Assembly: GCA_031835245.2 (NCBI GenBank) | Contig: JAVKOQ020000038.1 | Span: forward strand, 124,001 to 188,000 | Length of the DNA stretch: 64,000 nucleotides | Direction: 5' to 3' | Source of the DNA: Balamuthia mandrillaris | Lineage: Eukaryota | Part shown: positions 17,116 through 38,060 of the stretch, one piece after another | How the letters are laid out: every line of letters starts with the position of its first letter | Numbering within the stretch: the first letter of the stretch is position 1 | Notes under the pieces: model-generated | The model's input: only the letters and a program-made list of their open reading frames with translations | Told to the model about the DNA's origin: nothing | The model's database searches: none | Position numbers and translations under genes: made by a program

Positions 17116-17152
<37 letters not shown>

Positions 17153-17508: not shown

Positions 17509-17509
17509 C

Positions 17510-17541
17510 AATTTAGCAGGCAGAGTGCCGGTAGTGGACGG
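17510..17541 (+). repeat. Left terminal copy of 32-bp inverted repeat
   Basis: AATTTAGCAGGCAGAGTGCCGGTAGTGGACGG is the exact reverse complement of 37934-37965. Confidence 0.95.
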
Positions 17542-17791
17542 TCTTAGCTGCAGGCCACCCTCGCGCTCAACCTGTGCCTCCGCCCCGCGGGGCAACAGGC
17601 AAACCAACGGCAGCAGGTCCTCGCCGCCACCGCCGAAGTGGACGGTCTTAGAAACAAGTAGGTCAGAGGAAAAAGAATTTAATAAATAGAAAAAAGAAAA
17701 AGAGAAAACACTTCGGTTGTGGAGAGCGAAGAATGGTGTGATGACAGTTGCTACAAAGTGAAGTGGCTATTTTTAAGCTACTACTGGTAGC

Positions 17792-18280
17792 TTATTGATA
17801 AGCGTTTTCCACGTCCTTTTCATTAGGAAGTGGTTTGTTGTCTTCTTCTGGCTTGGGAAAACTTCTATGGTCCTTCAAGAGTATGTATCTTTGCTTCAGT
17901 CCTTCGAGATCACTTCTTGTGTGTTCAAGGTCCATCTTCAAGGAGCTTGACTCCTCTCGTAATCGATAAACAAGCCCTACAAGCACTCCAACTGCACCTA
18001 TTAATGTAGCCGTGCCTTGGAAGTATCTTGCTCTCGCACCGATTTTAGCGCTGCGCAATAAGGCTTCACGGTTCAGCTCCGCAACCTTTAGTGAAGTGGT
18101 TGTGTGAACCTCTGCTATCTTTGTGTTGTAAGCCCCTGCTATGTGAGCCGCCTTTTCATGAGCTGTTTGCCCACTTGCTAGAGCACAGGTTTCCTCTGCC
18201 ATTTGACCGTCGTCCTCACAAAAAAGCCACGTGATAATTTTTGGCGACATGGGAAACCTCCATTTTTTAGGACTCCTCAT
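17792..18280 (-). CDS. Hypothetical protein with one TM segment and a coiled coil (element-borne; start may be internal)
   Basis: 162-aa intron-less ORF; LIGAVGVLVGLVY hydrophobic stretch followed by heptads. Confidence 0.5.
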   Translation of the reverse strand: MRSPKKWRFPMSPKIITWLFCEDDGQMAEETCALASGQTAHEKAAHIAGAYNTKIAEVHTTTSLKVAELNREALLRSAKIGARARYFQGTATLIGAVGVLVGLVYRLREESSSLKMDLEHTRSDLEGLKQRYILLKDHRSFPKPEEDNKPLPNEKDVENAYQ

Positions 18281-18408
18281 AGTTATATATAACTATGGTA
18301 AATTGGTTTCCTGACAAGAATAGACATTTATTCCTGGCAAACGTTGACAGGAGAATTTCCTCTCTCTTTTTTTTTCGCAGTCCAAACCAACAACACACAA
18401 CACACAAT

Positions 18409-19413
18409 ATGGAAGGACGACAGGTCGGCCGAAAGAAGGCAAACGCCGCTGAGATCTTCAAGATGCTCCGCAAGTTAAACGACGCAGAATTTAGCGTGCT
18501 TTGCGAACTCCTCGGCACCGACGGTATTGACAATATACTGAACCTATTGACGCCCGAGCTCATCGAACAAGCCTGTGAGAAAGACAAAGCGAAGGATTCT
18601 TTGAAACGCCCTCACGCCGCTATGTCCGACGATGACCATGACTTCATGCGTTGGTACAACGAGCAGTACAAGTATGCCGAGCGAATAATGGCAGCCGGTG
18701 ATATCACGTATTTGGACGTTGTACCGCCGGCCCTCGAGGATGATCCGGGTAGCGACGAGGCGATTATGGCGGATCTCAGGAAGTTAGCTATGGTGAGGAA
18801 TGATTCGCAGACTCTGGCCAACATCTATGCCTCGAAAGTTGGGTATTACGTGGCGCTAGTGGCCGGGCTTAGGACGACTGATCCAGCCCGCGCTAGAAGA
18901 CTAGCCATCTTCCTCAGCGGTGGCCCTACGCCGATAGTTTCACAGTCGATGGTCCGCCGATATGTCAGCTACTACAATGATCTTAGGCGCTACCCCGCGA
19001 TCATCTATATGCCGTGCAGTTGGTGTACTTACACGACAAAGTATGCCAGCAAGTTCCGAGACTATGTTAGCAGAGACCCGGAGCATGCAAGCTTTTGGAA
19101 GCGCATTGGCAAAGAAAAGAAGAGGATCCGCTTAGCCAACGTTAGCCTGCAACCGACTGTAGCGATGGTACACCAAGAGATGAACCACGAGCAATGGAAG
19201 GAGTTTGATAAGAACCTGAAGAGCGGCGCTCACCCGACGTTAATCTCCTGCAACAAGATGAAGAGGACCGCACGCGCCGTCAGCGATACGCACCTGAATA
19301 AACTGATAGAGGAAGTCTTCTCGGCTAATATTTGTTATCAATTTGTTGTAAAGATGCGCCTTCCAATACATTCGGTGCCCTATATGGAATTCTTGTTCCG
19401 GCGGCATTGTTAA
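18409..19413 (+). CDS. Hypothetical protein (element-borne)
   Basis: Long intron-less ORF with ATG at 18409 after a CA-rich leader; 3' end overlaps the helicase gene antisense. Confidence 0.6.
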   Translation: MEGRQVGRKKANAAEIFKMLRKLNDAEFSVLCELLGTDGIDNILNLLTPELIEQACEKDKAKDSLKRPHAAMSDDDHDFMRWYNEQYKYAERIMAAGDITYLDVVPPALEDDPGSDEAIMADLRKLAMVRNDSQTLANIYASKVGYYVALVAGLRTTDPARARRLAIFLSGGPTPIVSQSMVRRYVSYYNDLRRYPAIIYMPCSWCTYTTKYASKFRDYVSRDPEHASFWKRIGKEKKRIRLANVSLQPTVAMVHQEMNHEQWKEFDKNLKSGAHPTLISCNKMKRTARAVSDTHLNKLIEEVFSANICYQFVVKMRLPIHSVPYMEFLFRRHC

Positions 19414-21807
19414 CAATGTTGTGAAGAACTGACTGTTGTCCGTCGGCTCAACAAACCTATTAATGCGGCCGTGTGTCCTCGCAACACTGTCGTATGTTGT
19501 TGGCCGCCGGCAAGCACCCATATACTTGATGAAGATGTGTTGTCCGCCGGGTATGTCCCTTACACGGGCCAACATCTGATCGCACATCAGGAAGTCATCT
19601 TTGTCAGTGAGAAAGTAAGCAAACAACCGCCGGAATCTTGGCAACTCATAGCTAACCCCGCAGCTTACAGTGGAAGTATAGATGAGGATATCAACATCAC
19701 TCCAGAACTCAGCAACATTCTGCAGTTCCCGGCGCTTCTCCGAATCTGTATCCGAATTGTAGAGAGCGATGCGGGCGGCTGGATTCAGTTGCCGGAACTC
19801 TGCCGCAATAGCATTCGTCTGTGTGCGGCTAGTCATCACAACAACGATCGGAGAGTTATGCGCATTGAGAACTGCGGCTGTCAACTGTTCGCGCCAATGC
19901 TGTTCATTAGTGTACAAGTAGTCATTCTTCCGTTGTTCACGCCACGTATTGAGGTGCAAGCAGATGTTCTGTGCTCCTTCAGCCGGAGGAGGCCGGGCTT
20001 CAGCTAACAGGTGAAAAGTGCGGATAGTTGCATTGGCATCCAGCGCCAGTACTTGCTCTGCTGCGGTCAACAAATACCGGAAGTTTGACCAACAAGCGCC
20101 TAATGTGTATCGTCGCACTGTCTCTGGATTGTCGATCTGAGCAAACACAGCTTCAGATTCGTCCATTATCAAGATATACGGTTGGCCTGCATCAATCCGC
20201 AGCCTGTGTAAAGACTCAAACTGGATAATAACTCTTGGCGCTGTAATCTTCTTATCTACGCTGCGATAGTCAACGAATTCCGGCAGTTTAGCGGCAAGTG
20301 CTGATGTGAATGATTGCCTAAAGGAAACAATTACAACGTTAGTGCTTGCGGGCTGTTCGGCAATATAGCGCAACAATTGCTTCGTTTTGCCAGTGCCCTT
20401 AGGAGAGCGAATAATCAAAGTATCATATTTACCTTGCTCGAAATCATACGGCTGCACTTCCGGCGATTCATATTCAACCCTAGCAAACTGCGGCGGGATT
20501 TCGTATATGTTTTGGATGCCGGGTTTGGCTCCTTGGCGCCCATTGATAGCTCTATTAACAAACTCTTGCAGACTGAAGTCGCCGGCAGTGCGATTAGTTG
20601 AGTTCTCAATCAACCAACGCAATGTCATCTTTGCCAATGTGTTCAGCGCCGCATCAGCTTCCAACTCATCCAACTCATCTTCTTCAATATCCTCGAGCCC
20701 GGCGGCTTTGTCAAGACTGATTCTCTCCCATATCTGATTATTTCTCACAGGATCATAGTCCGGAGAGTCAACACTCCAGCGGTGCAGTAAGAAGACAGGA
20801 GAGAAGTCCGGTAGTAAACAAGTGGCCGCCTTAATCTTATACACAAGCCGGCGCCAATTCTTCCCATGCTTGTGATAGTCCGGCAAGAAAGCAATCAATG
20901 TATCGATGAAGTCCGGCGTAATGTTGTATGTTTTGCCGTCGAATGTTAGCTCTTTAGTCTCTGTGTTGTATGTTGTGTCATCACAACGGTTGAGATATTC
21001 TTCATGTTGTTTTCGCTTCACATGGAAGCCCCGCCGGATCTTCTCATTAACTTTATCTAGCTCCGATTGTCTAAGCCGCCCAGTAATCGGCGCATAAATC
21101 GAGTATCTAGCCAAATGTTGTTGGATTTCACCGGCAGTAGTTGCCCGCGGCTCATTCCAAGGAACGTACATATCTGGCCGGCCATCTATCAACCGCACTT
21201 CGCCGTTGACTACTTTCGCGGAGTAAGCAGAGCGCAAGCCCGCCGCATTAATATCAAAAGCATCATTCCATACTTTCTGGTCAACATCTGGGTCCAAACA
21301 CATCTCATATAGCGTATCCCTTATGTATTCCAGTACATACTTTCGGTATTGTTTGGCCGGCACACGGACAACCCTGCGTTCTCCAGTATTGTCAATGAAG
21401 TAGAATGTATGCTCGTGGATTCCGGTATTCAAAATGATGTGGAGCTTGCCGCTGATGTCGTTTTGCAACACCAGCACGTTATCCGGCCGAGAACGGTCTT
21501 CAAACATCCATTCAAGCATGTCTTGAAGCATTGAGATGTGGTCCTCACCGGTAAGCCGCATGTCGATATCAATATACAAGCGCGTGGACAAGCGGGTACG
21601 ATAAGGGAATTCATTCAACATAAACAGTCCGGGGTACTTCTCAAACAGTTCTTGAATGCCATAGGAGCGGGCGAATTGGTCAAAGTAATCATAATCAAAC
21701 CTGTCGAAGATACCGGTTGGATAAAATGCCATGTGAGAGTAGTTGTTCTTGCTGGCAGACATACGATCGTTGCGCAAAAGATAGGGAGTGCGAATTAATT
21801 TTGACAT
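19240..21807 (-). CDS. AEP primase fused to UL9/origin-binding-protein-like SF2 helicase
   Basis: AEP-like motifs RLYIDID, GKLHII, FD..AGLRSAYSAK; helicase motifs IRSPKGTGKT, VSFRQSF, IQFESLHRL, LIMDESE, ALDAN, LIYTSTVSCGVSY, QMLARVR. Confidence 0.85.
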   Translation of the reverse strand: MSKLIRTPYLLRNDRMSASKNNYSHMAFYPTGIFDRFDYDYFDQFARSYGIQELFEKYPGLFMLNEFPYRTRLSTRLYIDIDMRLTGEDHISMLQDMLEWMFEDRSRPDNVLVLQNDISGKLHIILNTGIHEHTFYFIDNTGERRVVRVPAKQYRKYVLEYIRDTLYEMCLDPDVDQKVWNDAFDINAAGLRSAYSAKVVNGEVRLIDGRPDMYVPWNEPRATTAGEIQQHLARYSIYAPITGRLRQSELDKVNEKIRRGFHVKRKQHEEYLNRCDDTTYNTETKELTFDGKTYNITPDFIDTLIAFLPDYHKHGKNWRRLVYKIKAATCLLPDFSPVFLLHRWSVDSPDYDPVRNNQIWERISLDKAAGLEDIEEDELDELEADAALNTLAKMTLRWLIENSTNRTAGDFSLQEFVNRAINGRQGAKPGIQNIYEIPPQFARVEYESPEVQPYDFEQGKYDTLIIRSPKGTGKTKQLLRYIAEQPASTNVVIVSFRQSFTSALAAKLPEFVDYRSVDKKITAPRVIIQFESLHRLRIDAGQPYILIMDESEAVFAQIDNPETVRRYTLGACWSNFRYLLTAAEQVLALDANATIRTFHLLAEARPPPAEGAQNICLHLNTWREQRKNDYLYTNEQHWREQLTAAVLNAHNSPIVVVMTSRTQTNAIAAEFRQLNPAARIALYNSDTDSEKRRELQNVAEFWSDVDILIYTSTVSCGVSYELPRFRRLFAYFLTDKDDFLMCDQMLARVRDIPGGQHIFIKYMGACRRPTTYDSVARTHGRINRFVEPTDNSQFFTTLLTMPPEQEFHIGHRMYWKAHLYNKLITNISREDFLYQFIQVRIADGACGPLHLVAGD

Positions 21808-21915
21808 TTGAAATTTTATATCCTGTATAGAAAAACGGAGTGAGGAGCCGTATTTTTTTGGAGGTGGTATATACTGGTGGTAATAGAATTTTTAATCCGA
21901 AATATTAATTAAGAA

Positions 21916-22173
21916 ATGGCAACAACACAACCGAGCTACATCATTAAAGAATGCTGGACAACTGAAAAAAGAAAGTGACGCAATGGAGAAGAATTTGTGA
22001 TGCAACGCCGGCGCAAGTATAAGGTGTTGGCGCCTGAGAGTAAGCATAAGTTGAGCCCGGATGTCGTTGCAGAGGTGCGGCAAGCATTGGCGAATGGCGC
22101 CACAAAGCGGGAGATCGTTGAAGACTATGGCATTAGCTTCTATAAGCTACAGAAGTATATTGTTGCCAAATAA
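21916..22173 (+). pseudogene. Small HTH DNA-binding protein with premature TGA at 21976
   Basis: ...EKRK*RNG...LSPDVVAEVRQALANGATKREIVEDYGISFYKLQKY. Confidence 0.6.
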
Positions 22174-22220
22174 TGTTGGCTGGCAGATGACAACATAGTA
22201 AAAGCAACAATATTTTTTTG

Positions 22221-22381
22221 GCTGGAGAGTAGCCTTCATCCGGCAAAGCCCAGAAGAATGAGAGATAATAACTGTTTATGACTTCTACCGGCCTTCTTCA
22301 GTTAGATGTAGCCTTCATCAATCTATGGTTATATAATCTGTTCTGACGAAGGCTACATTTATTGAAAACCTATATCCACTC
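22221..22381 (+). repeat. Intergenic palindromic repeat, copy 1
   Basis: Arms ATGTAGCCTTCATCA (22306-22320) and TGACGAAGGCTACAT (22344-22358), 23-nt spacer containing TTATATAA, third GTAGCCTTC box at about 22229. Confidence 0.95.
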
Positions 22382-23217: not shown

Positions 23218-23541
23218 ATGGATCCAGTCATAGACGAACGTGTTGACTTGTTTGACTTGCCAGATGAAATCAAAGTGATGATTACAGACTATCTTTGGGC
23301 AGACTTCCGCCGGCATAAGTGATTGATGAAGCCAACACTAATGCAAGTGCAGATATGGGAAGAAGTAAGGAAAAGGCTTGAGATAGCAATGAAGAGAAAT
23401 GAGCGAAGCCAGCCAGTGCACTTTGAACATGAGGCAGACTATTATGAAGAATATCACCAGCGGGTAAAAAAGATAGATTACTGGTGGACAGAGCAACAGA
23501 AGTACTTGCGGGATCAGTATGGTGAAAATATTCCACCGTGA
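23218..23541 (+). pseudogene. F-box-like small protein with premature TGA at 23320
   Basis: MDPVIDERVDLFDLPDEIKVMITDYLWADFRRHK*LMKPTL. Confidence 0.55.
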
Positions 23542-23732
23542 TTTATGAAATGTACACTACAGCAAGGAATTATACAAGGATTTCTGCGGCTAGTGCAGAA
23601 AAATTAATTTTTGCTATCATTGCAGCACCCTTCACCGGCATGTTCTGAAAGCCAATCATCATAATATTATGACACTAGGTATGTAGATTTGGATGGCTGA
23701 TGATAGCAAAAAGTATTATTTTTTTGTGTGGT

Positions 23733-23895
23733 GAGTGGCCATAAGAATTTCAATGTAGCCTTCGTCAGAACAGATTATATAACCATAGATTGATGAAGGC
23801 TACATTTAGTAGAAGTCCACCAATGTCATTGTCAAACAATCGAAATCATTCTTATTTACTAATGCCGCCAGATGAAGGCTACTCTCTCCGGCCAA
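23733..23895 (-). repeat. Intergenic palindromic repeat, copy 2 (inverted)
   Basis: Arms 23753-23767 and 23791-23805, third box at about 23874-23883. Confidence 0.95.
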
Positions 23896-23896
23896 C

Positions 23897-25231
23897 TTAT
23901 ACATAGCTGCATGATGTGTTGTAAGTTATGCTGGTCATTGCAATGTCCACAGCATCACTTCAATCAGTTGTGGCATTATAAGTGCAGGCAAAGTCTATCA
24001 ATCCGTTAGCCTGTATATGAATGCAGCAATACATGTCAAAACCGGCATGACTGCATTGAGCCATGAAATATTGGTTAACACTCGGCTGATATTCCAACGG
24101 CAAAGCAGATTGAGAAACTAACCTCGCAAACGGAGTAGGAAGGCCGTTGAAGAGGATTGACTCAGTCCAAGTTATCATAACCTGATCACCAATCCTTGTT
24201 AACTTATGGTCAACATTCAAAGCCTTTGTAACGCTGGCACCATCGTGGTAAGATACAACCATATCATCTGCTATCATAATTCCAACTGTTCCAGCATCAT
24301 TCACATCCGGGATTGTATAAGTTCTGTCGACTGATGGCGCGGTTCCGCTAAAAGTGTAGTGTGTCCCAGCAGGATCATCTGAAATAGCCAACCCACTCAT
24401 AACCGCTGGCAGATAATTGATTGGCTGCGATTCTGTGAATGAACCACCGGTGCTCATGCTTGCTTGTGTGAAGGCCCATTCATCATTCATTTCATCCCAC
24501 ATCATGGTGGCATTCGTGGGGATCAACAGATAACTATCACCGGTTGTTGTTAACGTGAAGTCCGGATATGTGTTGGCAATTGTGGCAATCTTCTCTATCC
24601 CATCATAATCAGTGATCAACGCCACTTTGCCGGATTCTGCGCCAGAAGTCATCTTCAAATACCAGCCGATGTAATAATCATCTACGCTGCTACTAGCTGC
24701 ATCATTAAGATGTTGCCAGTTGCCACCAGCCGAAGAAGGCTCAGAGAGAGTTGAGGCAATGCCTGGGCTAACACTGTCAACATCTCTGTGGGCAACCACG
24801 CCGCTGTTGATATCTGGCGTTTTGTCTGTGTTGAGCTCTAAGAAATTGCCTGAGAATCCATCGGCAGTAGTGGACTCATCGGCCCATTCAAGCCCGCTGC
24901 TATCCGATGCAACTTTGAGCACTTGTCCGGCTGCACCTTTTGCTAATATCACATCACTAGTGCCATCGTGAGTTAGCAAATCACCAGCGGCTGTTAGCTT
25001 CTCATCTTCAACCCACATCACAGCATTGCCGGCGGGATTGACAGCAAGAACTTGGCCACTGGTGCCCAACGGTAAGCGCAGGTGTTGTGAGCCGTCATGC
25101 ATGAGGAGATCACCGGCAGCAGAGAGTGGCAAGATGTAAGATGCAGAGCCAGAGCCTGAGGTTCCATAAACTGAAGTAGAGCCATTAAGAACTCGTGGCC
25201 CAAGAGGTGTATTATAAGAATCAGTTGACAT
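23897..25231 (-). CDS. Putative fibre/spike (receptor-binding) protein; probable premature TGA at 23962
   Basis: Two AAGDLLxHDG...GQVL...W repeats and DDYYIGWYLKMTSG...ITDYDG, resembling phage/giant-virus fibre modules; frame stays open 20 codons past the TGA to a TAA. Confidence 0.6.
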
Positions 25232-25291: not shown

Positions 25292-25918
25292 TTAATAATC
25301 TGCTTCTACATCTTCTAACTCTTCTTCATCTTCCTTTGGGTCATCGCTTTGATGAATCACACAGCGCTCTTGCATGGCCAACCACTGTCGCAGTGAATAG
25401 TCACCACTGTCAAGATCGTCTGGGCATGTGCAATATAACAGGACTTTCTCACCCGGTTGTAAACCAAGAGTGCGGAACTTACTGATATAACTTCACGGTG
25501 TATACTGGTGCCAATTTGGGAACACAATATTGAACCATACTTTGAACTTCTCTTTGGGTACTGACCGCCTTGCATGATGAGGTAAGTCAATTGTTCGTTG
25601 TAAGAAAGTCCGCGCATGTTGTACATCAGGATTGTTTTGATATTCCCCCCTAATATTCAGGTCAATGAGGTCATTTACTAAACCAACGGTAAACCAGATA
25701 TCATGATAATCCCCCCTTGCCATTCCCACACGGGCGTTATAGAATGTGGAGAACTGCTTGTGTTTTTTGATACCAGCCAACACCGGCAAGTATTTGATGT
25801 GATGTAATGTGTGTGAGAACAACTGCCAATGTTTTGCTTGCTCCAGCTGGCGCAAATGTTCGCCAACAATGTACTGAATCTCAGGCAGCAATGGTAAGTC
25901 TGCAACTCTGGAGTCCAT
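25292..25918 (-). pseudogene. F-box-like paralog family protein with premature TGA at 25495
   Basis: MDSRVADLPLLPEIQYIV...HQYTP*SYISKFR...EDVEADY in a single frame. Confidence 0.55.
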
Positions 25919-25952
25919 TTATTATAGCTGAGATAAAAAATAATGCGATGAT

Positions 25953-26327
25953 TTAATGATACAAACACTGCCCATACTTGATGCACTTCTGCCGGATAAT
26001 TGCCTGCCAGAGAAGGCGCTTCTCATGTTGGCGGTAGTCCCTCAGATTGTGAGACAAATGTCTAACGAAGTTGAACCATATATCAAAATTTTCTTCAAAG
26101 TTTATGAAGCCTGTTTGCTCTCTGAGATACTTAGCTAATTCCTTTTCTTCCTTATCCATTTGTGAGCCATTGGCCATGCGGCATCAGGCTGCGTGGTGAA
26201 CATTGGAGATGCCCTTAACAGGAAACCTGGCTCGCTTGTTCATGTACCAAGAGTATAACAGGTAGTCTTTGATCTCGTTCAGCGCAGGGGTAAACTTGCG
26301 GCGATGTTCGTCATGCAAATCCAACAT
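25953..26327 (-). pseudogene. Paralog family protein with premature TGA at 26186
   Basis: MLDLHDEHRRKFTPALNEIK...HAA*CRMANG...FDIWFNFV; shares H...FTPxL..I and WFN.V with neighbouring ORFs. Confidence 0.5.
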
Positions 26328-26376
26328 TGTTTTTTTGGCTCTACTTATACTTATGCAAACACAAAAAATAATTTCA

Positions 26377-26685
26377 TTAATTCATCATTTGAAGTTTAAA
26401 GCAAAACATGAATGCTTGTATTTTTGTAAAGTTCAGGTAATGTTGTGACAAGGTGAAACAACTTCGCCTGCCTGCGATGTTAGGAGGCGATATTAAACAA
26501 ATACTCCCATTGTTCATTTGCAGTTTGTAATCTTGAAAGTCTTGCATCTTCCTGATTTGAGAAAGTACAGGTGTGAACTGCAACTGGTGTCTATTCTTGT
26601 CATTTTCAGCAAGAATATTGCTGACCACAGCTTGAAGTTCAATTGGGAGTGGTAAGTCAGCTGCTCTCTTATCAACATAGACCAT
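26377..26685 (-). CDS. F-box-like paralog family protein
   Basis: MVYVDKRAADLPLPIELQAVV...RHQLQFTPVLSQIRK, similar to the N-terminus of 25918. Confidence 0.55.
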   Translation of the reverse strand: MVYVDKRAADLPLPIELQAVVSNILAENDKNRHQLQFTPVLSQIRKMQDFQDYKLQMNNGSICLISPPNIAGRRSCFTLSQHYLNFTKIQAFMFCFKLQMMN

Positions 26686-26739: not shown

Positions 26740-27519
26740 TTAAACGTAATTGTTCTTCAACCACCGCAAATGCAGTATGATACTTGTTGGCTCACCATTG
26801 AAGTTAATCCGCCGCCTGAGATTGTCCGTGATTTGTATGCGGACATGGTTAATAACTTTCTTCAAAAGTGGGAGATAGATCCGCGCACTAGGAGTCTCGT
26901 TAATGAAATAGCTTGGGAGAACAACCGGCAAGAATGTATGGATAGCGCTGGTGGGAGAACCATCCGCAAGCGAGTTTTGTACAATATCTACATTGATGAG
27001 AATATCTGTGATGCCGTTGTTGATTAACACGTTGTTCTGCACAGTTGTATCAGCACTATAAACAGCTGGGTCAAATCCAAGCCACTGTGCAAGTGCATTC
27101 TGTGTGAGATCAACACTGTAGCCGCCACTAATAACCAACTGTGCGCGGTTCAGTTGATAGTTGGCAATAATTGTGACATAATACTCATCAGCACCATTCG
27201 GGCCAGTACTGGTGGAATAGTCGCCTGCGGCTCTCATCTGTGCCTGAATGAACGTATTAAGATCCTCAATACCATAAAAGCCCGCCGGAATATTGATAGT
27301 TTGGTCCACACTCCCGTTATTGTAGTAAAACACAATGTTATCATACTGGGCTTCAATATTCCGCCAAGTATACCAGCCACGGAAAGAACATAGGGCGATC
27401 TCATAGTTCTCAGCGCTATCAATAGTAAGCGGTGGATTGAAGTATGTTGTGAAATCATCTGAGGTGCCATTTGTGTGGTTAGCTGAGTTGAATGTTAGGT
27501 AAAAACTGTGATCCAGCAT
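26740..27519 (-). CDS. Minor capsid protein (penton, single jelly-roll)
   Basis: YEIAL, IPAGFYGIEDLN, INVDIV.NS..DG..AIHTF, IQITDNLRRRINFNGEPTSIILHL: Polinton penton pattern. Confidence 0.88.
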   Translation of the reverse strand: MLDHSFYLTFNSANHTNGTSDDFTTYFNPPLTIDSAENYEIALCSFRGWYTWRNIEAQYDNIVFYYNNGSVDQTINIPAGFYGIEDLNTFIQAQMRAAGDYSTSTGPNGADEYYVTIIANYQLNRAQLVISGGYSVDLTQNALAQWLGFDPAVYSADTTVQNNVLINNGITDILINVDIVQNSLADGSPTSAIHTFLPVVLPSYFINETPSARIYLPLLKKVINHVRIQITDNLRRRINFNGEPTSIILHLRWLKNNYV

Positions 27520-28597: not shown

Positions 28598-30065
28598 ATG
28601 AAATTTGTACAAGTGAGAAACCTACAGGATCACATTGCATTAACAGAAGAGGTAGCGCAACTGCAAGAGGGTTTGCGAAAGCGGTCGCGTTCTCATGCAT
28701 TGGGCAATCTATCTGAGTTTGATGACATCAATAAACTTGCATTGCCGATCACATGTGAACTACAAGGATTGCGGGCTGATAACTTACAATCCCGCAGCTA
28801 TACAGACCGCTGAGGACTGCAGGATGAAGCACCAAAGAAGAAGATGGATGATGAAGATCCGCTGCCAGGTAGAACAACTGAGGGTGATAAAGTTGCCAAT
28901 GAGTGGGAGTCGTATACTCTTGGAGAGCTTTTAGGAGAGCCAGATGATGAAGACTTTGAATCAATACCAGGCGCATCTTCTGCCGGCTCTTTGGCCACAG
29001 CAATGGTCCCATCCGGGATGATCCCACAGGGATACATGCTGGTTAAGCCGCCAAAAGACAAAGGCAAGGGTAAACAAGTAGTTAGTGAGCCACCTTCACC
29101 AGCATTTGCCCCACAGCCATCTGGAACGCCAGCATCACTTAGCATGAGTATTCTGATGATGCCTAGTGGTGGAATGAATATCAAAGATTACTACATGCTA
29201 CAACTGAAGAACAAAGCAAATAAAGATAGAGCTGACGTGAGGAAAACTGAAATGATGTTTGATCCCGATGAAGCCACAACCGGACTGTTCAGGGATAACA
29301 TTATAACGCCGGAACCAGGCCAGACATTTTGGACAACAGACACTATCTCTGTGAGACAAATACAGGAAACAAAAGGCAACATACAAACTGACTCCGGATT
29401 TGTTGAAGTTATTGACTATTGGCGCCGATGCCTTTCAGGATATGAAGGATGACATTAGTGTTTCAGTGATGCAGGATTACAAAAGAATTGCTACACACGG
29501 AGGTAAAGAGCATGGTTTTGGGAGGGCAGGGAAGTGGAGCTATATTGAGGACCACCTTCGTAGCCATACCGGCAAAGGATTGAAGAAGAGAAAGCAACGG
29601 GGCGGCCGGCCTGGCAATCTTATCAGCCTTCTTGGCGGTTGCAATAAGAAAGCACCTAGTCAGCCGGGTAGGAAGCAAACAGGAGGCAAACTGGCTGGTA
29701 AGAAGCAGAGCTCGCTGAGCAGAGTGCCAAGAGGCACGTTCCCTTCAGGAAACTGTTCCAAACGGAACCAAGTTGGCGGTTATGAAGCCAGCACTTCTTC
29801 TTTCACTGGCAAGACTCCAGGTCTACAGTATGATTTCTCAATCGACAATGCATTCAACCAGCTGAAGACGTTGATTGCCACGCGTGAGAATGGTAATAAG
29901 AGTAAGAAGTTGTGGGCGGAGATCAGTGACGGGCTTGACTTCTTGCAGCAGAAGAAGGCGTTAACACAAGAGGAACATAGTGTGGCGCTTAACCGGCTGT
30001 TGGGAGTGAAAGATACTTCGGCTGGTGGTATTGTGGCACCAGATGATAGCGAATATCTGGATTGA
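28598..30065 (+). pseudogene. Polinton-type conserved uncharacterised protein; TGA at 28811 and a frameshift near 29353
   Basis: TYKLTPDLLKLLT...DYKRI and QLKTLIATRENGNKS..L..EI...LD.L resemble conserved Maverick accessory motifs; GKGL/GG cleavage-like sites. Confidence 0.6.
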
Positions 30066-30094
30066 AAGTATCACAGTGGGTGGTTATCTTTTTT

Positions 30095-30355
30095 TCAATA
30101 AATGTAGCCTTCATCAATCTAGGTTATATAACATTGTCGAATGAAGGCTACATTGGTGGACATAACTTTTTCAATAAATGTAGCCTTTGTCATATAGCGA
30201 GTGGCCATAAGAATTTCAATGTAGCCTTCATCAGAACAGATTATATAACCATAGATTGATGAAGGCTACATGTAACTGAAGAAGGCTGGTAGAAGTCATA
30301 AACTTACAATATCTCTCATTCTCCTTGCTTTGCTGGATAAAGGCTACTTTCAGCT
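30095..30355. repeat. Intergenic palindromic repeat, copies 3a (+, core only), a half-site and 3b (inverted, full)
   Basis: Palindromes at 30102-30153 and 30219-30271; third box at about 30340-30348. Confidence 0.93.
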
Positions 30356-30378
30356 GACACAAAAAAATAACATACCTC

Positions 30379-30774
30379 TTACTCTTCGGCCTCCTCACCG
30401 CTCTCATCCTTGGCTACATTGTCATCATCACTATCAAACTCCTCCGCATAATGTTGGAAGACATACTTGGACAACTCGCCGGCTTGCGGTTTACTTACTG
30501 GCTTCTCTTTTTTCGCGGCAGCACCACTCTTCTTCACCAGAGCTTGCTTACTTGCGGCTTTCCTAACCAGCGCCTTCTTTGCTGGAGTCTTCTTTACTGG
30601 CGCCTTCTTGCTGGCTGTTGTCTTCCTAACTGCTTTCTTTACCACCAGCAATGGTTCCACAATAGGTTCTGGTTCAGCAACAACTTCTTCACTTACCTCT
30701 TTCACTGACTTGTTGCCTAGAGCATCCAACATATGCTGCAAGAACTTATGTGCTAGTTCATCTGAGAACTCCAT
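30379..30774 (-). CDS. Histone H1-like Lys/Ala-rich protein with acidic ends
   Basis: KKAVRKTTASKKAPVKKTPAKKALVRKAASKQALVKK. Confidence 0.65.
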   Translation of the reverse strand: MEFSDELAHKFLQHMLDALGNKSVKEVSEEVVAEPEPIVEPLLVVKKAVRKTTASKKAPVKKTPAKKALVRKAASKQALVKKSGAAAKKEKPVSKPQAGELSKYVFQHYAEEFDSDDDNVAKDESGEEAEE

Positions 30775-30827: not shown

Positions 30828-31295
30828 TTATTCTCCTTCTTCTTTCTTCTTTCTCTCAACACCCATGTACTCCTTGAGAATATAGTTGATTTGGTTCTGC
30901 TGCATTTGCTCTAATGTTTGCCTGCTCAGTAGTACTCGCCCCTGGAAACAAACAGGCATCCCAAGTGCCGCAATAATTGACTCCTTCAGTAGGCCATACA
31001 CAAGATGTATCTTTGAATCCTTGGAATGCGTGATAAAGACCAACACATGCGCATGCAACCTCTTTTGCCGGGCTGATTTCCACTCAATTGATGATGCTAA
31101 CTGGAATGAATAAATAGGATCCCGGGTCTTACCCCACTCAAATATCTGAAGCATATCTTCTGCATTCTCTTCAGAGAACACATCCTGTATAACCCGCGTA
31201 AACTTTCGCACAAGCCGGCAGCTCTCTGGCGTGTTCTTGACCTTCTTGTTTGTATTGATGAATATGTGCCACTGACTAATTGCATAATCAGTCAT
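30828..31295 (-). CDS. HUH-superfamily (Rep-like) endonuclease
   Basis: Ordered motifs WHIFINTN (I), E...RLHAHVLV (II, HUH), NYILK (III, YxxK) in 155 aa. Confidence 0.7.
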   Translation of the reverse strand: MTDYAISQWHIFINTNKKVKNTPESCRLVRKFTRVIQDVFSEENAEDMLQIFEWGKTRDPIYSFQLASSIEWKSARQKRLHAHVLVFITHSKDSKIHLVYGLLKESIIAALGMPVCFQGRVLLSRQTLEQMQQNQINYILKEYMGVERKKKEEGE

Positions 31296-31554: not shown

Positions 31555-32249
31555 ATCATCCAACTAACCTACAGGAAGGTGAAGGGTTGGCCGACATTTA
31601 CAATGCAGTGAAGACAACGCTGCAGCAGATGTTTGGCGGTCTCAGGTTGAATGCTCCACCGGCAACCCGCCGGCTTGTGGAAGCCAAAGGAAACGTGGTG
31701 ATTACTTCAATGTATGTTGTGCAAAGCCCAATCCAACAAGCAATAACTACTCTCGGCAATATCCTAACACTAGGAGACTTATCCCGAATGCAGCACAAGT
31801 TGAATTACAACAATCTATATCATTTGTATCTTATTCTTCGGCTCCAAACCAGTGAAGTTATCCAGCTTGAGAAGAATCAAGTGGTAAGCGCCCGGCTGGC
31901 CAGTGAAGCCGACCTACACCTGCATAATGGCAGCGCAATGCAGGTTAATGTAAGAGGCCGGCCAACACTTGCCACAATGCTTACCCGCACTTTGAAGGCC
32001 GTGGGAGAACGCCAGATGTGGCTGTATAGTGCCACTAGATACAATTGCCAACTGTTCATACATGACATACTTGCGGCCAACGGAATGCTAACAGCAGAGT
32101 TAAAGAACTTCATTATTCAGGACGCAGCACAACTATTGAAGGGCCACCCACGTATCCGAGGCCTTGCTAAACTTGCAACGGACTTAGCCGCAAAGTGGTA
32201 TATGGCTCAGGTTTCTGAGGTTCCACTGGAACGCGTGGGCTTTCAATAA
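31515..32249 (+). CDS. Permuted papain-like (PPPDE/LRAT-type) hydrolase; probably joined to the upstream Zn-ribbon by a -1 shift
   Basis: His (LYHLYL) precedes Cys (YSATRYNCQLF); EGEGL site lies before the first ATG. Confidence 0.55.
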   Translation, partial: KKKESNSGQSLLLNHPTNLQEGEGLADIYNAVKTTLQQMFGGLRLNAPPATRRLVEAKGNVVITSMYVVQSPIQQAITTLGNILTLGDLSRMQHKLNYNNLYHLYLILRLQTSEVIQLEKNQVVSARLASEADLHLHNGSAMQVNVRGRPTLATMLTRTLKAVGERQMWLYSATRYNCQLFIHDILAANGMLTAELKNFIIQDAAQLLKGHPRIRGLAKLATDLAAKWYMAQVSEVPLERVGFQ

Positions 32250-32309
32250 TTATTTATTTATTGATTTTTTTATGTCTGATATAGTATAGTGTATTAGTTC
32301 AGCGCGAAG

Positions 32310-32738: not shown

Positions 32739-34356
32739 ATGTCCGTGAAACAACTCGACCCGAGAATGACCCAAGAGTGGGATCTCTTCAGCAGCGATGT
32801 CGTTGATGAGACTACCACCTCTTTCGAATATGTGAGGTTCCCTTACTTAGCAAGCGGCGCCTCTAACCAAATCCCGGCGACTGGTGATATCCAGATTCAG
32901 ATTCATGATATGGCTTCCTGGTTGTTGATTAATAAAGCGTTTTTGGAAGTGAAGTATAAGATTACCAAGTCTGATGACACTGCTCTCTCAGTACTTCCCA
33001 CTGACAAGGCTACTACCACTCAGTTAGTTGGTTTGACTAATGGCGGCTGGAATATCTTCAGAGAAATACAGTGGAAGATCAATAACAAAACTGTTGGCGA
33101 GGTTGATAACGTAGGTTGACTGCCCAGGGAAAGCAGCCACTGCCCCTTGCGAGGCAGCACGGCGGGACGACGGTGTTGCCACCGCCGCCCAGACCTAGCT
33201 GCAACCCAACCCCTTCTGTATACGTATTGTCACTAATGTGATGAATCTCGTATGCTGGAGTGAAGACAATGTGCAGTCTCTCGGCTCACGTGAGGGCTTC
33301 TTCCTGGAGACCTATGGGGGTGATGGTGTTAGTCCTCATGAGTTTTTGAGAGATCAAACCGCAAGAGTGCAAGCCTATGATGCAGCCACTGCTGGCTCTG
33401 TGGTGGCTGGCACTTTCACCACTTTGTGGGATAAGATTGGTAATTGCTCTGATTCCTTTGCCAAACGTGTGGCGCGTTCTGCTTCCACTGCTGGCCCAAC
33501 TAGTAAACATACCACGTTGTTCCTTCCTATTGCTGATGTCTGCTGATTCTGGTATCATCAACGTGCGGCATGGCGCGGAACTACTCACACTCTAGTGTTG
33601 AGGCAGAATGATGCCGCATTGGCTCTTCAAGGAACTACTTTTACATACGGTGGTGTTAGTTATGCTAGCTCAACTGACTTCAAACTGGTGATTGATGAGC
33701 TCAACCTGTGGATTCCTAAGATCCAGCCCAGTTTGCAAGTGCAGGCAATGCTTGACAAACAGCTCGCCGCTGGTACCTCAAAGACCGTTGTGTATAATGA
33801 TTTGTACATCTATCGCGGCTCTCCAACCACCAGCACTGGCAAACAAACACTGCCAATCACTAGCTCTATTCGTAAGCCTAAGCGTATGTATGTTGTGTTC
33901 CAAGATGCCACAAGGCTCGCCAGAGCTACTACAATGAGCAGGAATAAGGCTGTATTTGATCATCTGAATATGCAATCTATTCACGCAGTTGTTAACGGCC
34001 GGAGTGTACCTGAGAGTGAATACCAACCTTACTTCGGTGCCTCTAACAAAAGCTATGTGCGATTGTACAATGCATATTTGGAAGCCGGAATGCATTGCAA
34101 TGATAGTGAGTCTGGCAGTGTCGTGACATTTGAAGACTTCAAGAACTTGTATCCTATCTTTGTCTTCGATTGCGGCTACAACAAGGGTGATCGTGCTGCG
34201 TTCAGTTATCAGACAGCGGCTGATAACCATCTTGAATATACTCCTGGCAGTGGTGCAAAGGCATCATTTGTGCCGATTGTTATCATCGAGGCGGAGGCTG
34301 AGATTGAGTACAAGGGTGATGGTGAGTGCTTACAAATCGTTGACAACCGCCACTAA
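32739..34356 (+). pseudogene. Double jelly-roll major capsid protein (~500 aa), interrupted by a 109-bp insert and a TGA at 33544
   Basis: KAFLEVK, IFREIQWKINN, DELNLWIPKI, KPKRMYVVFQ, AVFDHLN...VNGRSVP, FEDFKNLYPIFVFD: Polinton MCP pattern. Confidence 0.9.
33115..33223 (-). mobile_element. 109-bp GC-rich structured insertion in the MCP gene
   Basis: Removal restores DNV-G-IVTNVMNL; minus strand forms two GCAA-loop hairpins; GT microhomology at the ends. Confidence 0.75.
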
Positions 34357-34415
34357 ACAACTAATAACCTACCAATATTTTTTTGTCTGCTATAGTATAA
34401 GAAGAAACCAGCAAG

Positions 34416-34922
34416 ATGCCGTATGATAATGTACCTGTTCATTTAACAGAGCAACAGCAAAAGTCCATTGGTAAGGCTATCAAAGCGGGCTGAGGTGTTA
34501 ATATTTGGCTTACAAGAAAGCAACTGAGGGCCGAACCGAATGCCGCACTGCTGCTTACCAAAACACAAGCAAAGCGGCTTAAACGATCGGCAAAGGCCGG
34601 CAAAGGCTTAGTGTTGAAGCTTAGTAAGACACAATTGGTGAGAATGAAGCCACAAGTTGGGGGATTCTTACCAGTTCTAGCAGCCTTCGTTGCGCTGATT
34701 CTCGCGGGTGTTGCTGATAAACTTATTGATAAAGGCATTGATACAGCAACCGGCGCATTGGGCAAACTATTTGGGGGAAATGTGAGAAGAAAGATAAAGC
34801 CAAGGAAAGGCAGAGGATTACATCTAGGATACACAATGGGCTCGCAAAACAGACATTCCATACGGAACCCGGCCCAATCTGGTGGTTGTGGTAAGTGTAA
34901 AAAAAAAGGTTCCACGCTCTGA
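34416..34922 (+). pseudogene. Virion core/membrane-active precursor with GGFL site; TGA at 34491
   Basis: LTEQQQK..KAIKAG*G...LLLTKTQ..RL...LKLSKTQL...GGFLPVLAA: Maverick-type small structural protein. Confidence 0.7.
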
Positions 34923-35365
34923 GCAACTTTGAGTTGGTAGAGATGTTAGCAGATTCGCCCTCATTTGCTGGCGTGTTTGCCCGCGATGAAGCCAAGAATG
35001 TGAAGACGAAAGACATTAACTTACCGGCGAGTTTTATCTTCAACTATGACAAACACTCACAACCGGGTTCACATTGGGTCGCTGTATATTGCGAGAAGAA
35101 CAGCCCATTTGTTGAGTACTATGATTCGTATGGTGTTGTTCCACAGCTGGAGCTTGAACGATTTCTGCGGAGGATTGCGCCCAAGCGCACAATATTGTAT
35201 CCTTCCATGCAGACACAAACGGACAAAACAGTTCTCTGCGGCTATTACTGTGTCCTCTACATTCAGCAAAGAGACGCCGGTAGAACACCGGCAGATATCA
35301 TCACTGTGTTCGATCAGGAACCAACAGCGGCCAATGAAGCTATCGTGCGGGATTATTTTACATGA
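34901..35365 (+). CDS. Adenain-like maturation cysteine protease; frame opens at an A9 run with no ATG before LSNF
   Basis: LSNFEL, FAGVFARD, FNYD...GSHWVA, YYDSYG, Q.Q....LCGYYC (H-D-Q-C set). Confidence 0.9.
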   Translation, partial: KKRFHALSNFELVEMLADSPSFAGVFARDEAKNVKTKDINLPASFIFNYDKHSQPGSHWVAVYCEKNSPFVEYYDSYGVVPQLELERFLRRIAPKRTILYPSMQTQTDKTVLCGYYCVLYIQQRDAGRTPADIITVFDQEPTAANEAIVRDYFT

Positions 35366-35416
35366 ACTGTTTTTATGTCGCCTGTAGTATAATACTTAGT
35401 GAAACCGGCAAGAACA

Positions 35417-35833
35417 ATGTTGATAGACCGTAGAAACATACACAGGTATGGTCCGGCGCACTTGCAGCGCGGGGGCTTCCTGAAGAACTTGATAAGAAAA
35501 GGAAAGAACACGCTGAATCCCAAAGGATTAGTTGGCACTTTGGGAAAGGAATTGTTAGGCGTTATCAAACCTATTGCAACCGGCAAGATTGAACAACTGG
35601 CTGACAGTGCGAAGTCTACTGCCAAAGGCAAAGTGCGCGAATTGCTCGGCGTGAAGTCTGGCAGTGGTATGCGAATGATCGGGTCCGGTTCTGGCAAGAA
35701 GAAGCCGGCAAAGAGTAAGCCAAGTGCCAAAGCAACGAAGAAGCCAACGCCAAAGAGTCGCGCACAGTTTGATAGCTTTCTAGGCGCCTCAATGAAGAAG
35801 AAACAGTCTGGTAAGGGACTGCGAATGATGTAA
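35417..35833 (+). CDS. Basic core protein precursor
   Basis: Lys-rich; RGGFL, GSGM and GKGL protease-site-like motifs. Confidence 0.7.
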   Translation: MLIDRRNIHRYGPAHLQRGGFLKNLIRKGKNTLNPKGLVGTLGKELLGVIKPIATGKIEQLADSAKSTAKGKVRELLGVKSGSGMRMIGSGSGKKKPAKSKPSAKATKKPTPKSRAQFDSFLGASMKKKQSGKGLRMM

Positions 35834-35877
35834 ATGTGGCGGCGGTAGTAAGCATACATCGATGTAAATATTTTTTT

Positions 35878-36036
35878 GGCCGGAGAGTAGCCTTCTTGCG
35901 GCAAAGCAAAGAAGAAGAGAGGAATTTAACAATTTACTAAGTTTATCTACCTTCCCCGAAATATGTAGCCTTCGTCAATCTATGGTTATATAACATTGTC
36001 TGACGAAGGCTACATTGAAATTCTTATATCCACTCG
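35878..36036 (+). repeat. Intergenic palindromic repeat, copy 4
   Basis: Perfect arms 35963-35977 and 36001-36015; third box at about 35887. Confidence 0.95.
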
Positions 36037-36104
36037 CCGGTATTATCTGTCGACCGATAACACGTAATCGTTTTATGTCGGCCTTAGTATAGTATACTGT
36101 GAGA

Positions 36105-37358
36105 ATGAAAGACTACTCTCAGTACAAATTCACAGATGAAGCATATGATGCCGGGTTGGAATACTTACAAACAAATACTTTGCCGGATCTCTTGCCGAAA
36201 GAACAGCGGCGTTTTGCTGATAAGTGGCGGCACTTCCGGCTTCAAGAAGGAACAGAAGACACCATTGTGGTGAAGTATGATGGCCGGATTGTAGTACCCG
36301 CTGGCGCTATTGATCGTGTGCTCGGCGAACTGATGGCAAGCCTGGCGACAATGGCATACGGCCGGGATAAGTTATATAAGCGCGCTGTGGAGTCATTTAT
36401 CGGCATATCTCGGCGGGATGTTGCGGCATACTTGCAGCGGAATCATACTAACCAATTACATCAACCGATTCGTAAGATTGCAGTGAAACAACCTATTCGG
36501 GCAAAGGCGCCGCATGAACGCCTGCAAGCGGATCTCGTGGATGTCAGTGCACTGCGCGGGTTTAACGACCGATACAATTTCATACTTACGGCTATCGATG
36601 TGTTCAGCAAATATGCGTGGGCGTTCCCAATCACCAAGAAGACTGCGGCGAATGTGGCCCGTTGGTTGCGGCCATTATTGGCGGAACAGCAGCCTAAAAT
36701 CCTGCAAACAGATAACGGCGCAGAGTTCGTCAATCATCTGCTGCGTGGCGCCCTGGAAGAGAATGGAATCGCACACATTACATCAAAGCCATACAAACCA
36801 AACTCACAAGCCGTTGTTGAGCGCTTTAACGGCACACTCAAGCGCATGCTCTGGCGGCATATGACCGCGAGTGGCACGAAGAATTGGAAGCGAGTGTTGC
36901 CTGCGGTGATAGACAACTACAACAATAGCTATCACTCAACAATTGGCGCAACACCGGCGGAAGTCCACTTGGCGCCAACACGGCGGAGATTACGAGCGGC
37001 CCGGCGTGGTATCAATAAGCAAGCGGCGGAGATGGTTGCGGCGGGAGAAGAAGAGAGAGAAGACTTGCCCGCAGTGCAGAGGCGGAGTGTACTGTTGGAG
37101 AAGTTTGCCCGAAAGACAGAGAAGTGGCGTAAGAGTTATGTGAGGAATTTCTCGCATGATTTGTATGAAGTAGTGCGGGTACATCCGGCAACCAAATACA
37201 TTGCAGAGCGCTATTCATTACGGCAGAAGTATGAGTGGCAGCAACGGGAACGTAATTACTTGCCGGTATTCGCCGAAACAGAGCAACGGCCCTTCTACCG
37301 AGATGAAATCCTGCCGGTGCAAATAAGCGACTACAGCGAATTATTTACGGAGACGTGA
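36105..37358 (+). CDS. Retroviral-type (rve, DDE) integrase
   Basis: QADLVDV, ILTAIDVFSKYAWA, LQTDNGAEF, VVERFNGTLK, YNNSYHSTIG.TP; ORF intact. Confidence 0.95.
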   Translation: MKDYSQYKFTDEAYDAGLEYLQTNTLPDLLPKEQRRFADKWRHFRLQEGTEDTIVVKYDGRIVVPAGAIDRVLGELMASLATMAYGRDKLYKRAVESFIGISRRDVAAYLQRNHTNQLHQPIRKIAVKQPIRAKAPHERLQADLVDVSALRGFNDRYNFILTAIDVFSKYAWAFPITKKTAANVARWLRPLLAEQQPKILQTDNGAEFVNHLLRGALEENGIAHITSKPYKPNSQAVVERFNGTLKRMLWRHMTASGTKNWKRVLPAVIDNYNNSYHSTIGATPAEVHLAPTRRRLRAARRGINKQAAEMVAAGEEEREDLPAVQRRSVLLEKFARKTEKWRKSYVRNFSHDLYEVVRVHPATKYIAERYSLRQKYEWQQRERNYLPVFAETEQRPFYRDEILPVQISDYSELFTET

Positions 37359-37393
37359 AGAATTTGTGAGCATAAGTATAGTAAACAAGCAAG

Positions 37394-37678
37394 ATGGCAG
37401 ACGTGCGCATGTGTTGTGATTTGGCGTCGAGTGATGAAGAAGGCGGCCAACAAGCCGGCAAGACTGCCGTAAAGAGGTGGATATGTTGTAAGCTGCGGCT
37501 AAAGTATTTGTGGGCGCTAATACAGTTAGCGGTGAGTCTGCTAGTGTTGTTGTTCTGCTTTGTACGTATTTGGTTTGCGATCAACGACACAGAGAAATAC
37601 GTTTGGATATCATTGATTAGTGGGATTGTTGGCTATTATCTGCCTTCGCCGCTGTCGGGCAACCTGTTGGAGAAGTAG
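37394..37678 (+). CDS. Small two-TM membrane protein
   Basis: Two hydrophobic helices ending VWISLISGIVGYYLPSP. Confidence 0.7.
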   Translation: MADVRMCCDLASSDEEGGQQAGKTAVKRWICCKLRLKYLWALIQLAVSLLVLLFCFVRIWFAINDTEKYVWISLISGIVGYYLPSPLSGNLLEK

Positions 37679-37730
37679 ATTAAATTCTCCGGGCACTGTT
37701 TGCCAGGATCATTTGTCTTTTTTTGTCGGC

Positions 37731-37905
37731 CAGTGGTTATAAGAATTTCAATGGTCGTGGAACGACGTGCGAAGCACTAGCCTTCGTCAGAACAGATTAT
37801 ATAACCATAGATTGACGAAGGCTACATCTAACTGAAGAAGGCCGGTAGAAGTCATAAACAGTTATTATCTCTCATTCTTCTGGGCTTTGCCGAACAAAGG
37901 CTACT
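37731..37905 (-). repeat. Intergenic palindromic repeat, copy 5 (inverted), with a 24-bp double-hairpin insert
   Basis: 37778-37892 is the reverse complement of 22241-22355 with one mismatch; insert at 37754-37777. Confidence 0.95.
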
Positions 37906-37933
37906 TTTTGTCCACAACCAACGCACACTCTCG

Positions 37934-37965
37934 CCGTCCACTACCGGCACTCTGCCTGCTAAATT
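37934..37965 (-). repeat. Subterminal copy of 32-bp inverted repeat
   Basis: Exact reverse complement of 17510-17541, about 90 bp inside the right end. Confidence 0.95.
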
Positions 37966-38060
37966 AGGTACGAGAGTGGACAAATTAGCAGGACAAAAAA
38001 CACGCTAAGTCGTTGTGAAACCGTATTGTGTACTGTACGGCGTAGTGGACGGTCTTATCT

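Follow-up and report, generated by a model that had tools for sequence, protein, structure and literature searches.

A defective, polymerase-less Polinton-like virus in the genome of Balamuthia mandrillaris with a UL9-like helicase and an HUH endonuclease

The DNA analyzed here, referred to as the window, is a stretch of 64,000 nucleotides from Balamuthia mandrillaris (assembly GCA_031835245.2, contig JAVKOQ020000038.1, positions 124,001 to 188,000 of the forward strand). Its positions 17510 to ~38060 are a defective endogenous Polinton-like virus (PLV) of 20.5 kb. The element carries capsid, packaging and integration genes, and its replication genes are a predicted primase fused to a helicase like that of herpesvirus UL9 and a small HUH endonuclease; no family B DNA polymerase (PolB) is found. 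With modest confidence, we regard it as an integrated, strain-variable PLV without a polymerase, whose ancestor likely used a giant-virus-type primase-helicase and the HUH protein together with a borrowed polymerase. The amoebozoan Balamuthia mandrillaris is taken as the host because NCBI files proteins identical to the helicase and HUH open reading frames (ORFs) of the window under that name.

The larger replication gene, at 19240-21807 on the minus strand, encodes 855 residues and is predicted to join an archaeo-eukaryotic primase (AEP) to a superfamily 2 (SF2) helicase of the UL9/F1055L type. The first-pass annotation had named such a helicase, and the profiles agree: the protein matches PF02399 (E 1.1e-24) and chains of the herpes simplex virus (HSV) UL9 structure (E ~1e-13). 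Residues 54-844 share 31% identity with a 1146-aa protein on a 365-kb giant-virus contig. The homology ends at residue 844, near nucleotide 19,275, and about 300 C-terminal residues are absent compared with the relatives, the other six of which are 990-1128 aa long. At this junction the helicase gene and a convergent ORF overlap by 174 nt. The motifs YIDID78, GKLH120 and AFDI183, corresponding to the AEP pattern DxD, sxH and D, are common to the element protein and its giant-virus homologue. In a quick tree of nine rows with long branches, these two proteins group together (SH-aLRT 99), apart from the helicase of a metagenomic PLV, L007, discussed below. The giant-virus homologue adjoins a C962R-like AEP-D5 gene, a neighbor that suggests an asfarvirus-like source for the helicase. 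Intact AEPs are reported for the F1055L/R8/UL9-related AEP-SF2 family in the available text of the mriyavirus study (PMC11253617).

The second replication gene (30828-31295, minus strand) encodes the 155-aa HUH endonuclease, with motif I at INTN13, the HUH histidines in HAH81-83 and the catalytic tyrosine motif YILK138-141. A search of 1.84 billion representative proteins gave 10 matches, which become eight when the element's own protein (P0008) and P0012, a repeat protein dropped as a relative, are removed. In the resulting alignment, YxxK (Y138/K141) is kept in all nine rows and HxH in eight; only the sibling P0009 lacks it, the segment being left out of its gene model. This sibling lies on another Balamuthia contig, of 475 kb. 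The alignment-based AlphaFold2 (AF2) model has a pLDDT of 81.5, and comparison with 48,161 chains gives SIRV1 ORF119 (2x3g) as its best natural match, a middling one (Z 7.9, rmsd 3.7, 103 aligned residues) tied with unrelated ferredoxin-like folds. SIRV1 ORF119 reportedly nicks the hairpin ends of a linear genome. The model also matches CRESS Reps in BFVD, while the HUH profile has no sequence match in the PDB. On these grounds the earlier assignment of an HUH protein is upheld.

A search of all six frames of the element detected no PolB motif, as had been noted earlier for its ORFs, and the longest unannotated gap of ~420 bp leaves no room for PolB. A Pfam scan of 29 ORFs produced clear matches for rve and Herpes_ori_bp only and weak ones for Pox_A32 (1e-3), adenain (0.037) and the Rep family PF23343 (0.025). 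Protein-primed PolB (pPolB) had no match among the 29 ORFs, nor was a remnant of it found on either side of the ~19,275 junction.

The structural and integration genes previously listed are present, with evidence of varying strength. The rve integrase (417 aa; 36105-37358, plus strand) has an open frame with DDE motifs and matches PF00665 (E 1.5e-14). The double-jelly-roll (DJR) major capsid protein (MCP; 32739-34356, plus strand) matches PF21738 (E 6.5e-6); its gene carries an in-frame stop and a disrupting insertion. With the stop read as X, it scores 26 bits against PF21738, where the cut-off is 27; a sibling on a 35-kb Balamuthia contig (P0018), 52% identical to it, scores 30 bits. Its Atlas look-alikes are a PF21738 cluster (0.96, 18% of members) and capsid clusters of nucleocytoplasmic large DNA viruses (NCLDV; 0.95-0.96), with low recognition. 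The capsid class leans toward the Maverick type, judging without a tree from PF21738, the protease and sequence signatures. The A32 packaging ATPase (27582-28513, minus strand; PF04665, E 1e-3) is interrupted. The adenain/S273R-like cysteine protease (34943-35365, plus strand) has weak profile scores (PF00770, E 0.037; S273R of African swine fever virus, E 0.002) and the full catalytic motifs His-Trp...Asp...Gln...Cys. The 259-aa product of 26740-27519 (minus strand), which we take to be a penton (minor capsid)-like protein, resembles viral hypothetical/DUF5901 clusters of the Atlas (0.97-0.98) and has no Pfam or PDB match. Basic core-like proteins are assigned by motif or composition at 29442-30065 (Gly-rich with xGG motifs, presumed role), 34494-34922 (QVGGFL motif) and 35417-35833 (QRGGFL motif, K+R 24%), all on the plus strand and without a database match.

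Six intergenic modules, R1-R6, are likely candidates for internal replication origins, and they give substance to the earlier suggestion that the element replicates from internal sites, by a mechanism that we can only propose. Their common core consists of two inverted ATGTAGCCTTC arms around an AT-rich spacer of 23-33 nt, and most of them carry a third, lone box ~70 nt away. R1 (22209-22381), placed between divergent gene starts, has a lone GTAGCCTT box followed by two inverted boxes around the spacer. R2 (23730-23900), R3 and R4 (30080-30370, adjoining the HUH gene) and R5 (35867-36038) are likewise palindromic, as is R6 (37720-37907), in which 24 nt are inserted at a box edge. The modules are dispersed and occur in both orientations, and their sequence conservation reaches 97% over 128 nt. 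The window contains 18 matches to GTAGCCTT, where 1.5 are expected; all are inside the element, where the six modules account for 17, and none is in the 43 kb of host flank. The six cores fold at z -4.2 to -8.4, a stability equaled by 0/200 shuffles. An Rfam scan returned two matches, both at chance level.

The right terminus (37934-38055) is a nested inverted repeat of ~120 nt that can fold back on itself (z -2.3; 4 of 200 shuffles equally good). The left end matches only the inner part of this repeat. The left remnant (17510-17547, plus strand) thus shares a perfect 32-bp inverted repeat with the right end (17510-17541 and 37934-37965), the only match between terminal inverted repeats (TIRs) that was found. 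We also considered the right end as a circle junction composed of the right TIR, a spacer and a copy of the left end; its outer copy, however, departs from the left end in the middle, which makes a fold-back terminus the preferred reading. Not far from the right end, 37677-37727 is 76-78% complementary to a stretch of 46-51 nt at 18313. In addition, a promoter-like motif, TTTTWTG-N4-8-TAGTATA, has five matches (at 32268, 32693, 34379, 35371 and 36071; 0 expected). In each case an element gene lies downstream, and less strict versions are found before the HUH and fibre genes. The HUH gene shares this motif with the structural and integrase genes and is therefore transcriptionally part of the element.

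Distant HUH homologues were found at two IMG/VR and 13 JGI loci, 10 of the latter being shorter than 3 kb; a JGI metagenome scan with the close-HUH alignment found no close relatives, and scans of the IMG/VR collection found none of the MCP, penton or integrase. Of the HUH loci, only L007 shows a replication gene (L001 represents this virus too). The part of L007 examined, 20.4 of 24.8 kb, encodes a 1042-aa UL9-like/PriCT-2 SF2 helicase, HUH, A32, MCP, penton, a DUF5767 protein and an rve integrase 30% identical to that of the element, and no pPolB. From its gene content, L007 would show that helicase, HUH and rve exist as a working combination. L007 looks intact over 872-19080 and contains three palindromic intergenic repeats of ~125 nt. 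HUH homologues also lie inside capsid gene clusters in L002 and L009, as in L007. A uniform scan for hairpins of the same family counted seven in the element (0.2 in shuffles), three in L007, two of three in L002 and one in L009; it counted none in three giant-virus segments and none of the family in the 43 kb of host flanks. L002 (886-942) and L009 (3378-3430), two related viruses, have an identical AT-rich spacer core, and their inverted arms differ yet remain complementary. L002 was not counted as UL9-bearing, its N-terminal fragment having no significant match to the L007 helicase. A scan of GTDB genomes found no relative for the L002-type MCP, and an ATPase-based scan returned two giant-virus segments and, apart from known loci, nothing else. 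The DUF5767/Mriya48-like gene suggests that L007 and L002 probably belong to the Zora/VC218 PLVs.

The insertion varies between samples, according to contigs of the empty site. In run X10, from another sample, letters 64-383 of a 700-nt contig (depth 10.2) align to 17192-17511, and letters 472-700 of a contig of equal length and depth align to 38064-38292. We take both alignments as one contig that represents the empty site and includes 88 host bases absent from the window. In run X17, from a third sample and covering the right side only, host sequence resumes at 38064/38065 with similar upstream letters, in accordance with position 38064 at which host sequence picks up in the empty alleles. 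The left end of the element is gone beyond the inner part of the repeat, and ~88 bp of host DNA was lost with the outer arm. A single deletion across the left junction explains both losses and leaves the target-site duplication (TSD) unreadable. Integrase-independent capture, suggested by the missing TSD, was rejected, as this one deletion accounts for the absence. GA/GAA microsatellites number 0 within the element and 10 and 16 in the flanks, and its GC content (0.453) is slightly below that of the flanks (0.493 and 0.473).

This copy is not a working virus: the helicase is truncated and both the MCP and the ATPase are broken. None of this, nor the 32-bp TIR match and the unreadable TSD, was part of the first-pass annotation. 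The ATPase is interrupted by a high-copy, solo-LTR-like host repeat of 211 bp (27856-28066) that ends in TG...CA and has a target duplication of 4 bp; in runs X2 and X10 it reaches a depth of 4,000-6,000, and its flanks there are mixed. The MCP is interrupted by a GC-rich insertion of ~100 bp (33115-33216) that matches a very abundant RNA and attracts nearly all of the ~175,000 run X13 reads; the overhangs of these reads resemble large-subunit (LSU) rRNA. The insertion has no target duplication and is possibly the product of RNA-templated break repair. Both this insertion and the in-frame stop are real, since a run X2 short-read contig over 32791-34808 shows no differences. Short-read contigs of the same sample differ by one homopolymer base at 21853, 22927, 25645, 25711, 30089 and 34899; assembly errors therefore probably account for part of the small ORF splits.

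Taking gene content, the lack of PolB, the modules, the fold-back end, the empty site and the lesions together, we find it somewhat probable that the element derives from a pPolB-free lineage, in which a UL9-like primase-helicase worked at internal palindromic origins, hairpin ends or origins were nicked by HUH, and the polymerase was borrowed. We infer the following steps. The UL9/F1055L-like protein would bind the inverted GTAGCCTT boxes through its C-terminal domain, which is missing in this copy. The helicase would then melt the AT-rich spacer and the AEP domain would prime synthesis, as HSV UL9 opens oriS. Elongation may rely on the host nuclear polymerase or on the polymerase of a co-infecting giant virus. 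The HUH protein would nick the fold-back termini or internal hairpins, leading to rolling-hairpin or rolling-circle strand displacement, and this nicking would substitute for the end-priming by pPolB in Mavericks. The A32 ATPase would package the genomes into a protease-matured DJR capsid, and the rve integrase would insert them. Through later decay, the copy lost its left end and the C-terminal part of the helicase, and the MCP and ATPase were broken. A more specific version, possible but doubtful, is that an amoebozoan Maverick-type lineage swapped pPolB for an asfarvirus-like primase/UL9 helicase and HUH, with a linear hairpin-ended genome, multiple oriS-like origins and HUH resolving the ends. 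If true, helicase, HUH and dispersed palindromes were assembled independently on at least two capsid lineages.

Several observations weigh against the pPolB-free lineage and its origins. The putative origin-binding C-terminal domain is the very part absent from the element helicase, and no homology of this C-terminal region to the UL9 DNA-binding domain is shown. The AEP half of the fusion, claimed from the start and backed by the motifs shared with the giant-virus homologue, has no match by hhalign against a C962R-like AEP or by Pfam. Five of the six modules lie just past gene ends, like terminators, as do all three repeats of L007, and the lone third box is direct here, compared with the inverted Box 3 of HSV oriS. 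L012, a 10-kb HUH-bearing locus, has no hairpin of the family in the uniform scan, and the PLV loci compared all carry HUH. L007 itself appears to be an analogue rather than a close relative: the MCP, penton and ATPase of the element have no similarity to the L001/L007 counterparts, its ORFs have none to the DUF5767 protein, and the two helicases are apparently not sisters. Finally, DNA, possibly including pPolB, was lost at the ~19,275 junction.

The last point leads to an ordinary Maverick-like ancestor that bore pPolB, with the helicase and HUH as accessories, and lost pPolB together with the helicase end near 19,275. The junction is real, as the end of homology with the 1146-aa relative and the overlapping convergent ORFs indicate, and the copy has suffered further deletions and insertions. 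However, L007 combines helicase, HUH and rve without pPolB in the part examined, the element is already of typical length at 20.5 kb with no PolB remnant beside the junction, and pPolB and helicase-type modules are described as mutual substitutes in the available text of the recent PLV survey (bioRxiv 10.64898/2026.06.19.733378). We consider this history unlikely. The giant-virus type of the helicase fits another possibility, a pPolB-less, virophage-like dependent copied by a giant-virus replisome, in which the palindromes are termination or polyadenylation hairpins and HUH resolves or packages the genome. In mimivirus, transcripts end by a hairpin rule, and the repeats mostly lie right after stop codons in the element, L007, L002 and L009. 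Many PLVs depend on giant viruses, according to the available text of the survey (bioRxiv 10.64898/2026.06.19.733378). A signal of structure only, however, accords poorly with the conserved module sequences, the unpaired AT-rich loop of 23-33 nt and the third, unpaired box; these features fit protein binding better. R1, moreover, is situated between divergent gene starts. We judge this dependent form rather improbable.

The remaining alternative, that the HUH gene or the helicase belongs to a separate nested element, with the palindromes as REP/RAYT-like non-autonomous targets of HUH, seems very improbable. It could explain why R3 and R4 adjoin the HUH gene, the dispersal of hairpins in both orientations and the insertion at the box edge of R6. 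Against it, the HUH gene carries the promoter-like motif of the element and has no flanking duplication, 9 kb separate the helicase from the HUH gene, the host flank contains none of the boxes, and the HUH homologues of L002, L007 and L009 lie within capsid clusters. The polymerase-less lineage with its own helicase and nickase stays our preferred reading.

Other genes of the element include a fibre-like protein (423 aa; 23960-25231, minus strand; phrog_9851 tail fibre, E 4e-8 over 43 aa), a histone-H1-like Lys/Ala-rich protein (131 aa; 30379-30774, minus strand; PF07382, E 1.2e-5, under the cut-off) and a 206-aa ORF (31629-32249, plus strand) without a Pfam match, presumably resembling the PLV Tlr6F protein. 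Two divergent ORFs of no family, of 162 aa (17792-18280, minus strand) and 372 aa (18295-19413, plus strand), share a palindromic start region and are the sole element genes with run X3 contigs. One contig of this run, which shows spliced host joints, covers the first ORF; another (18381-19375) spans the junction in the second, whose last ~45 codons are antisense to the helicase. That X3 and X13 leave most of the element uncovered was given no weight; X13 may come from a strain without the insertion and has hardly any reads on the host flank. Short ORFs in 25493-26685 and 23220-23541 open with a similar motif, D/E-x-R-V/A-A-D-L-P-L, which suggests a decayed paralogous family, perhaps, we assume, F-box-like.

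On the left, a GC-rich insertion of 89 bp (17548-17636, ~73% GC) lies between 15-bp copies (17533-17547 and 17637-17651). It is probably host-derived; similar sequence occurs at single-copy depth in run X10, a run without the element. The host gene disrupted by the element, in its 3' part, is a SAM-domain (probably PB1-domain) gene (16831-17547); its frame now stops inside the left terminal repeat, and a spliced X3 contig runs into the repeat. The host flanks contain tandem arrays at 12680-13768 (81-bp period), 44050-44700 (14-bp) and 51367-51677 (12-bp), and adjacent paralogues at 38881-39924 and 40142-40945, 78% alike over 243 nt and presumably glycosyltransferase-like with a DxD-type motif.

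For studying how replication starts in polymerase-less PLVs and mriyaviruses, the element offers concrete substrates, namely the short box with its AT-rich spacer, the terminus that folds back and the nickase of 155 aa. Therefore, nicking and binding can be tested in vitro, for which L007 is a better experimental model than the copy in the window. The element also brings the kit of UL9-like helicase and HUH to an integrating capsid lineage with a protease, and it documents in Balamuthia a family of endogenous viruses that varies between strains. Our literature searches, which missed most subscription papers, found no paper on such a Balamuthia family, nor this element or the exact pairing of kit and capsid. 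Many protist endogenous viral elements without polymerase are described, Balamuthia not being named in the main text (PMC10120064), and pPolB-less PLVs with primase-helicases are common (PMC10120064; bioRxiv 10.64898/2026.06.19.733378). The gene combination is mostly in print, AEP-SF2 with HUH in mriyaviruses (Yutin et al. 2024) and HUH with rve in Zora/VC218 PLVs (Bellas & Sommaruga 2026, preprint). The earlier claim of a distinct pPolB-less integrating lineage is supported by L007 in its gene set; given these prior descriptions, a large novelty is not supported.

Compared with HSV-1, the element has a homologous SF2 core and roughly the arrangement of oriS, where Boxes 1 and 2 are inverted around an AT-rich spacer next to a third box, the UL9 C-terminal domain reads the boxes and there are several origins per genome, as given in the available text of PMC12543377. 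It differs in box sequence, the direct third box, the N-terminal AEP and the missing C-terminal domain; HSV, moreover, encodes its own polymerase. Mriyaviruses (Yaraviridae, SF2_hel subset) resemble the element in replication genes. As the available text of PMC11253617 describes them, they have amoeba hosts, no DNA polymerase, HUH in all members with SIRV1 ORF119 as best structural match, and an AEP-SF2 related to F1055L/R8/UL9 in a subset; rolling circle replication was proposed from gene content alone, with no origin named. In that same text they have genomes of 35-45 kb, an NCLDV-type MCP, VLTF2/3, RuvC and Mriya48, and an integrase is not mentioned. The element, in contrast, is an integrated genome of 20.5 kb that encodes a PF21738-type MCP, a protease and rve. 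Pfam, NCBIfam and PHROG scans, which left several of its small ORFs without an assignment, detected in it no NCLDV-type MCP, VLTF2/VLTF3, RuvC or Mriya48.

Zoravirus (VC102) and VC218 PLVs, in the available text of bioRxiv 10.64898/2026.06.19.733378, resemble the element in size (20-30 kb), in HUH (~50% and 28% of genomes) and RVE (57% and 62%) and in a variable replication module; unlike it, they have an NCLDV-like capsid module with Mriya48, a protease is not mentioned, and neither is SF2/UL9. Group-2 Maverick-Polintons and Gosseviruses (Polintoviricetes) share with the element the PF21738 DJR MCP, penton, A32, cysteine protease, basic core-like proteins and rve. According to the available text of the survey (bioRxiv 10.64898/2026.06.19.733378), module switches are common and group-2 Mavericks often replace pPolB by SF1/SF3 helicase fusions, SF2/UL9 with HUH not being mentioned for them or for Gosseviruses. 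The element differs from both in its amoebozoan host, a shared TIR of only 32 bp and the fold-back right end. Of the hallmarks of a canonical Maverick/Polinton, it has rve, and protein-primed PolB is not found in this copy; where canonical members have long TIRs and a TSD of ~6 bp, the copy shows the perfect 32-bp repeat and a TSD made unreadable by the left-end deletion. The element is neither a canonical Polinton nor, in its core genes, a mriyavirus; it works like a replicon of the mriyavirus/Zora type, and the presence of this kit on a protease-bearing, Maverick-type capsid module is probably new.

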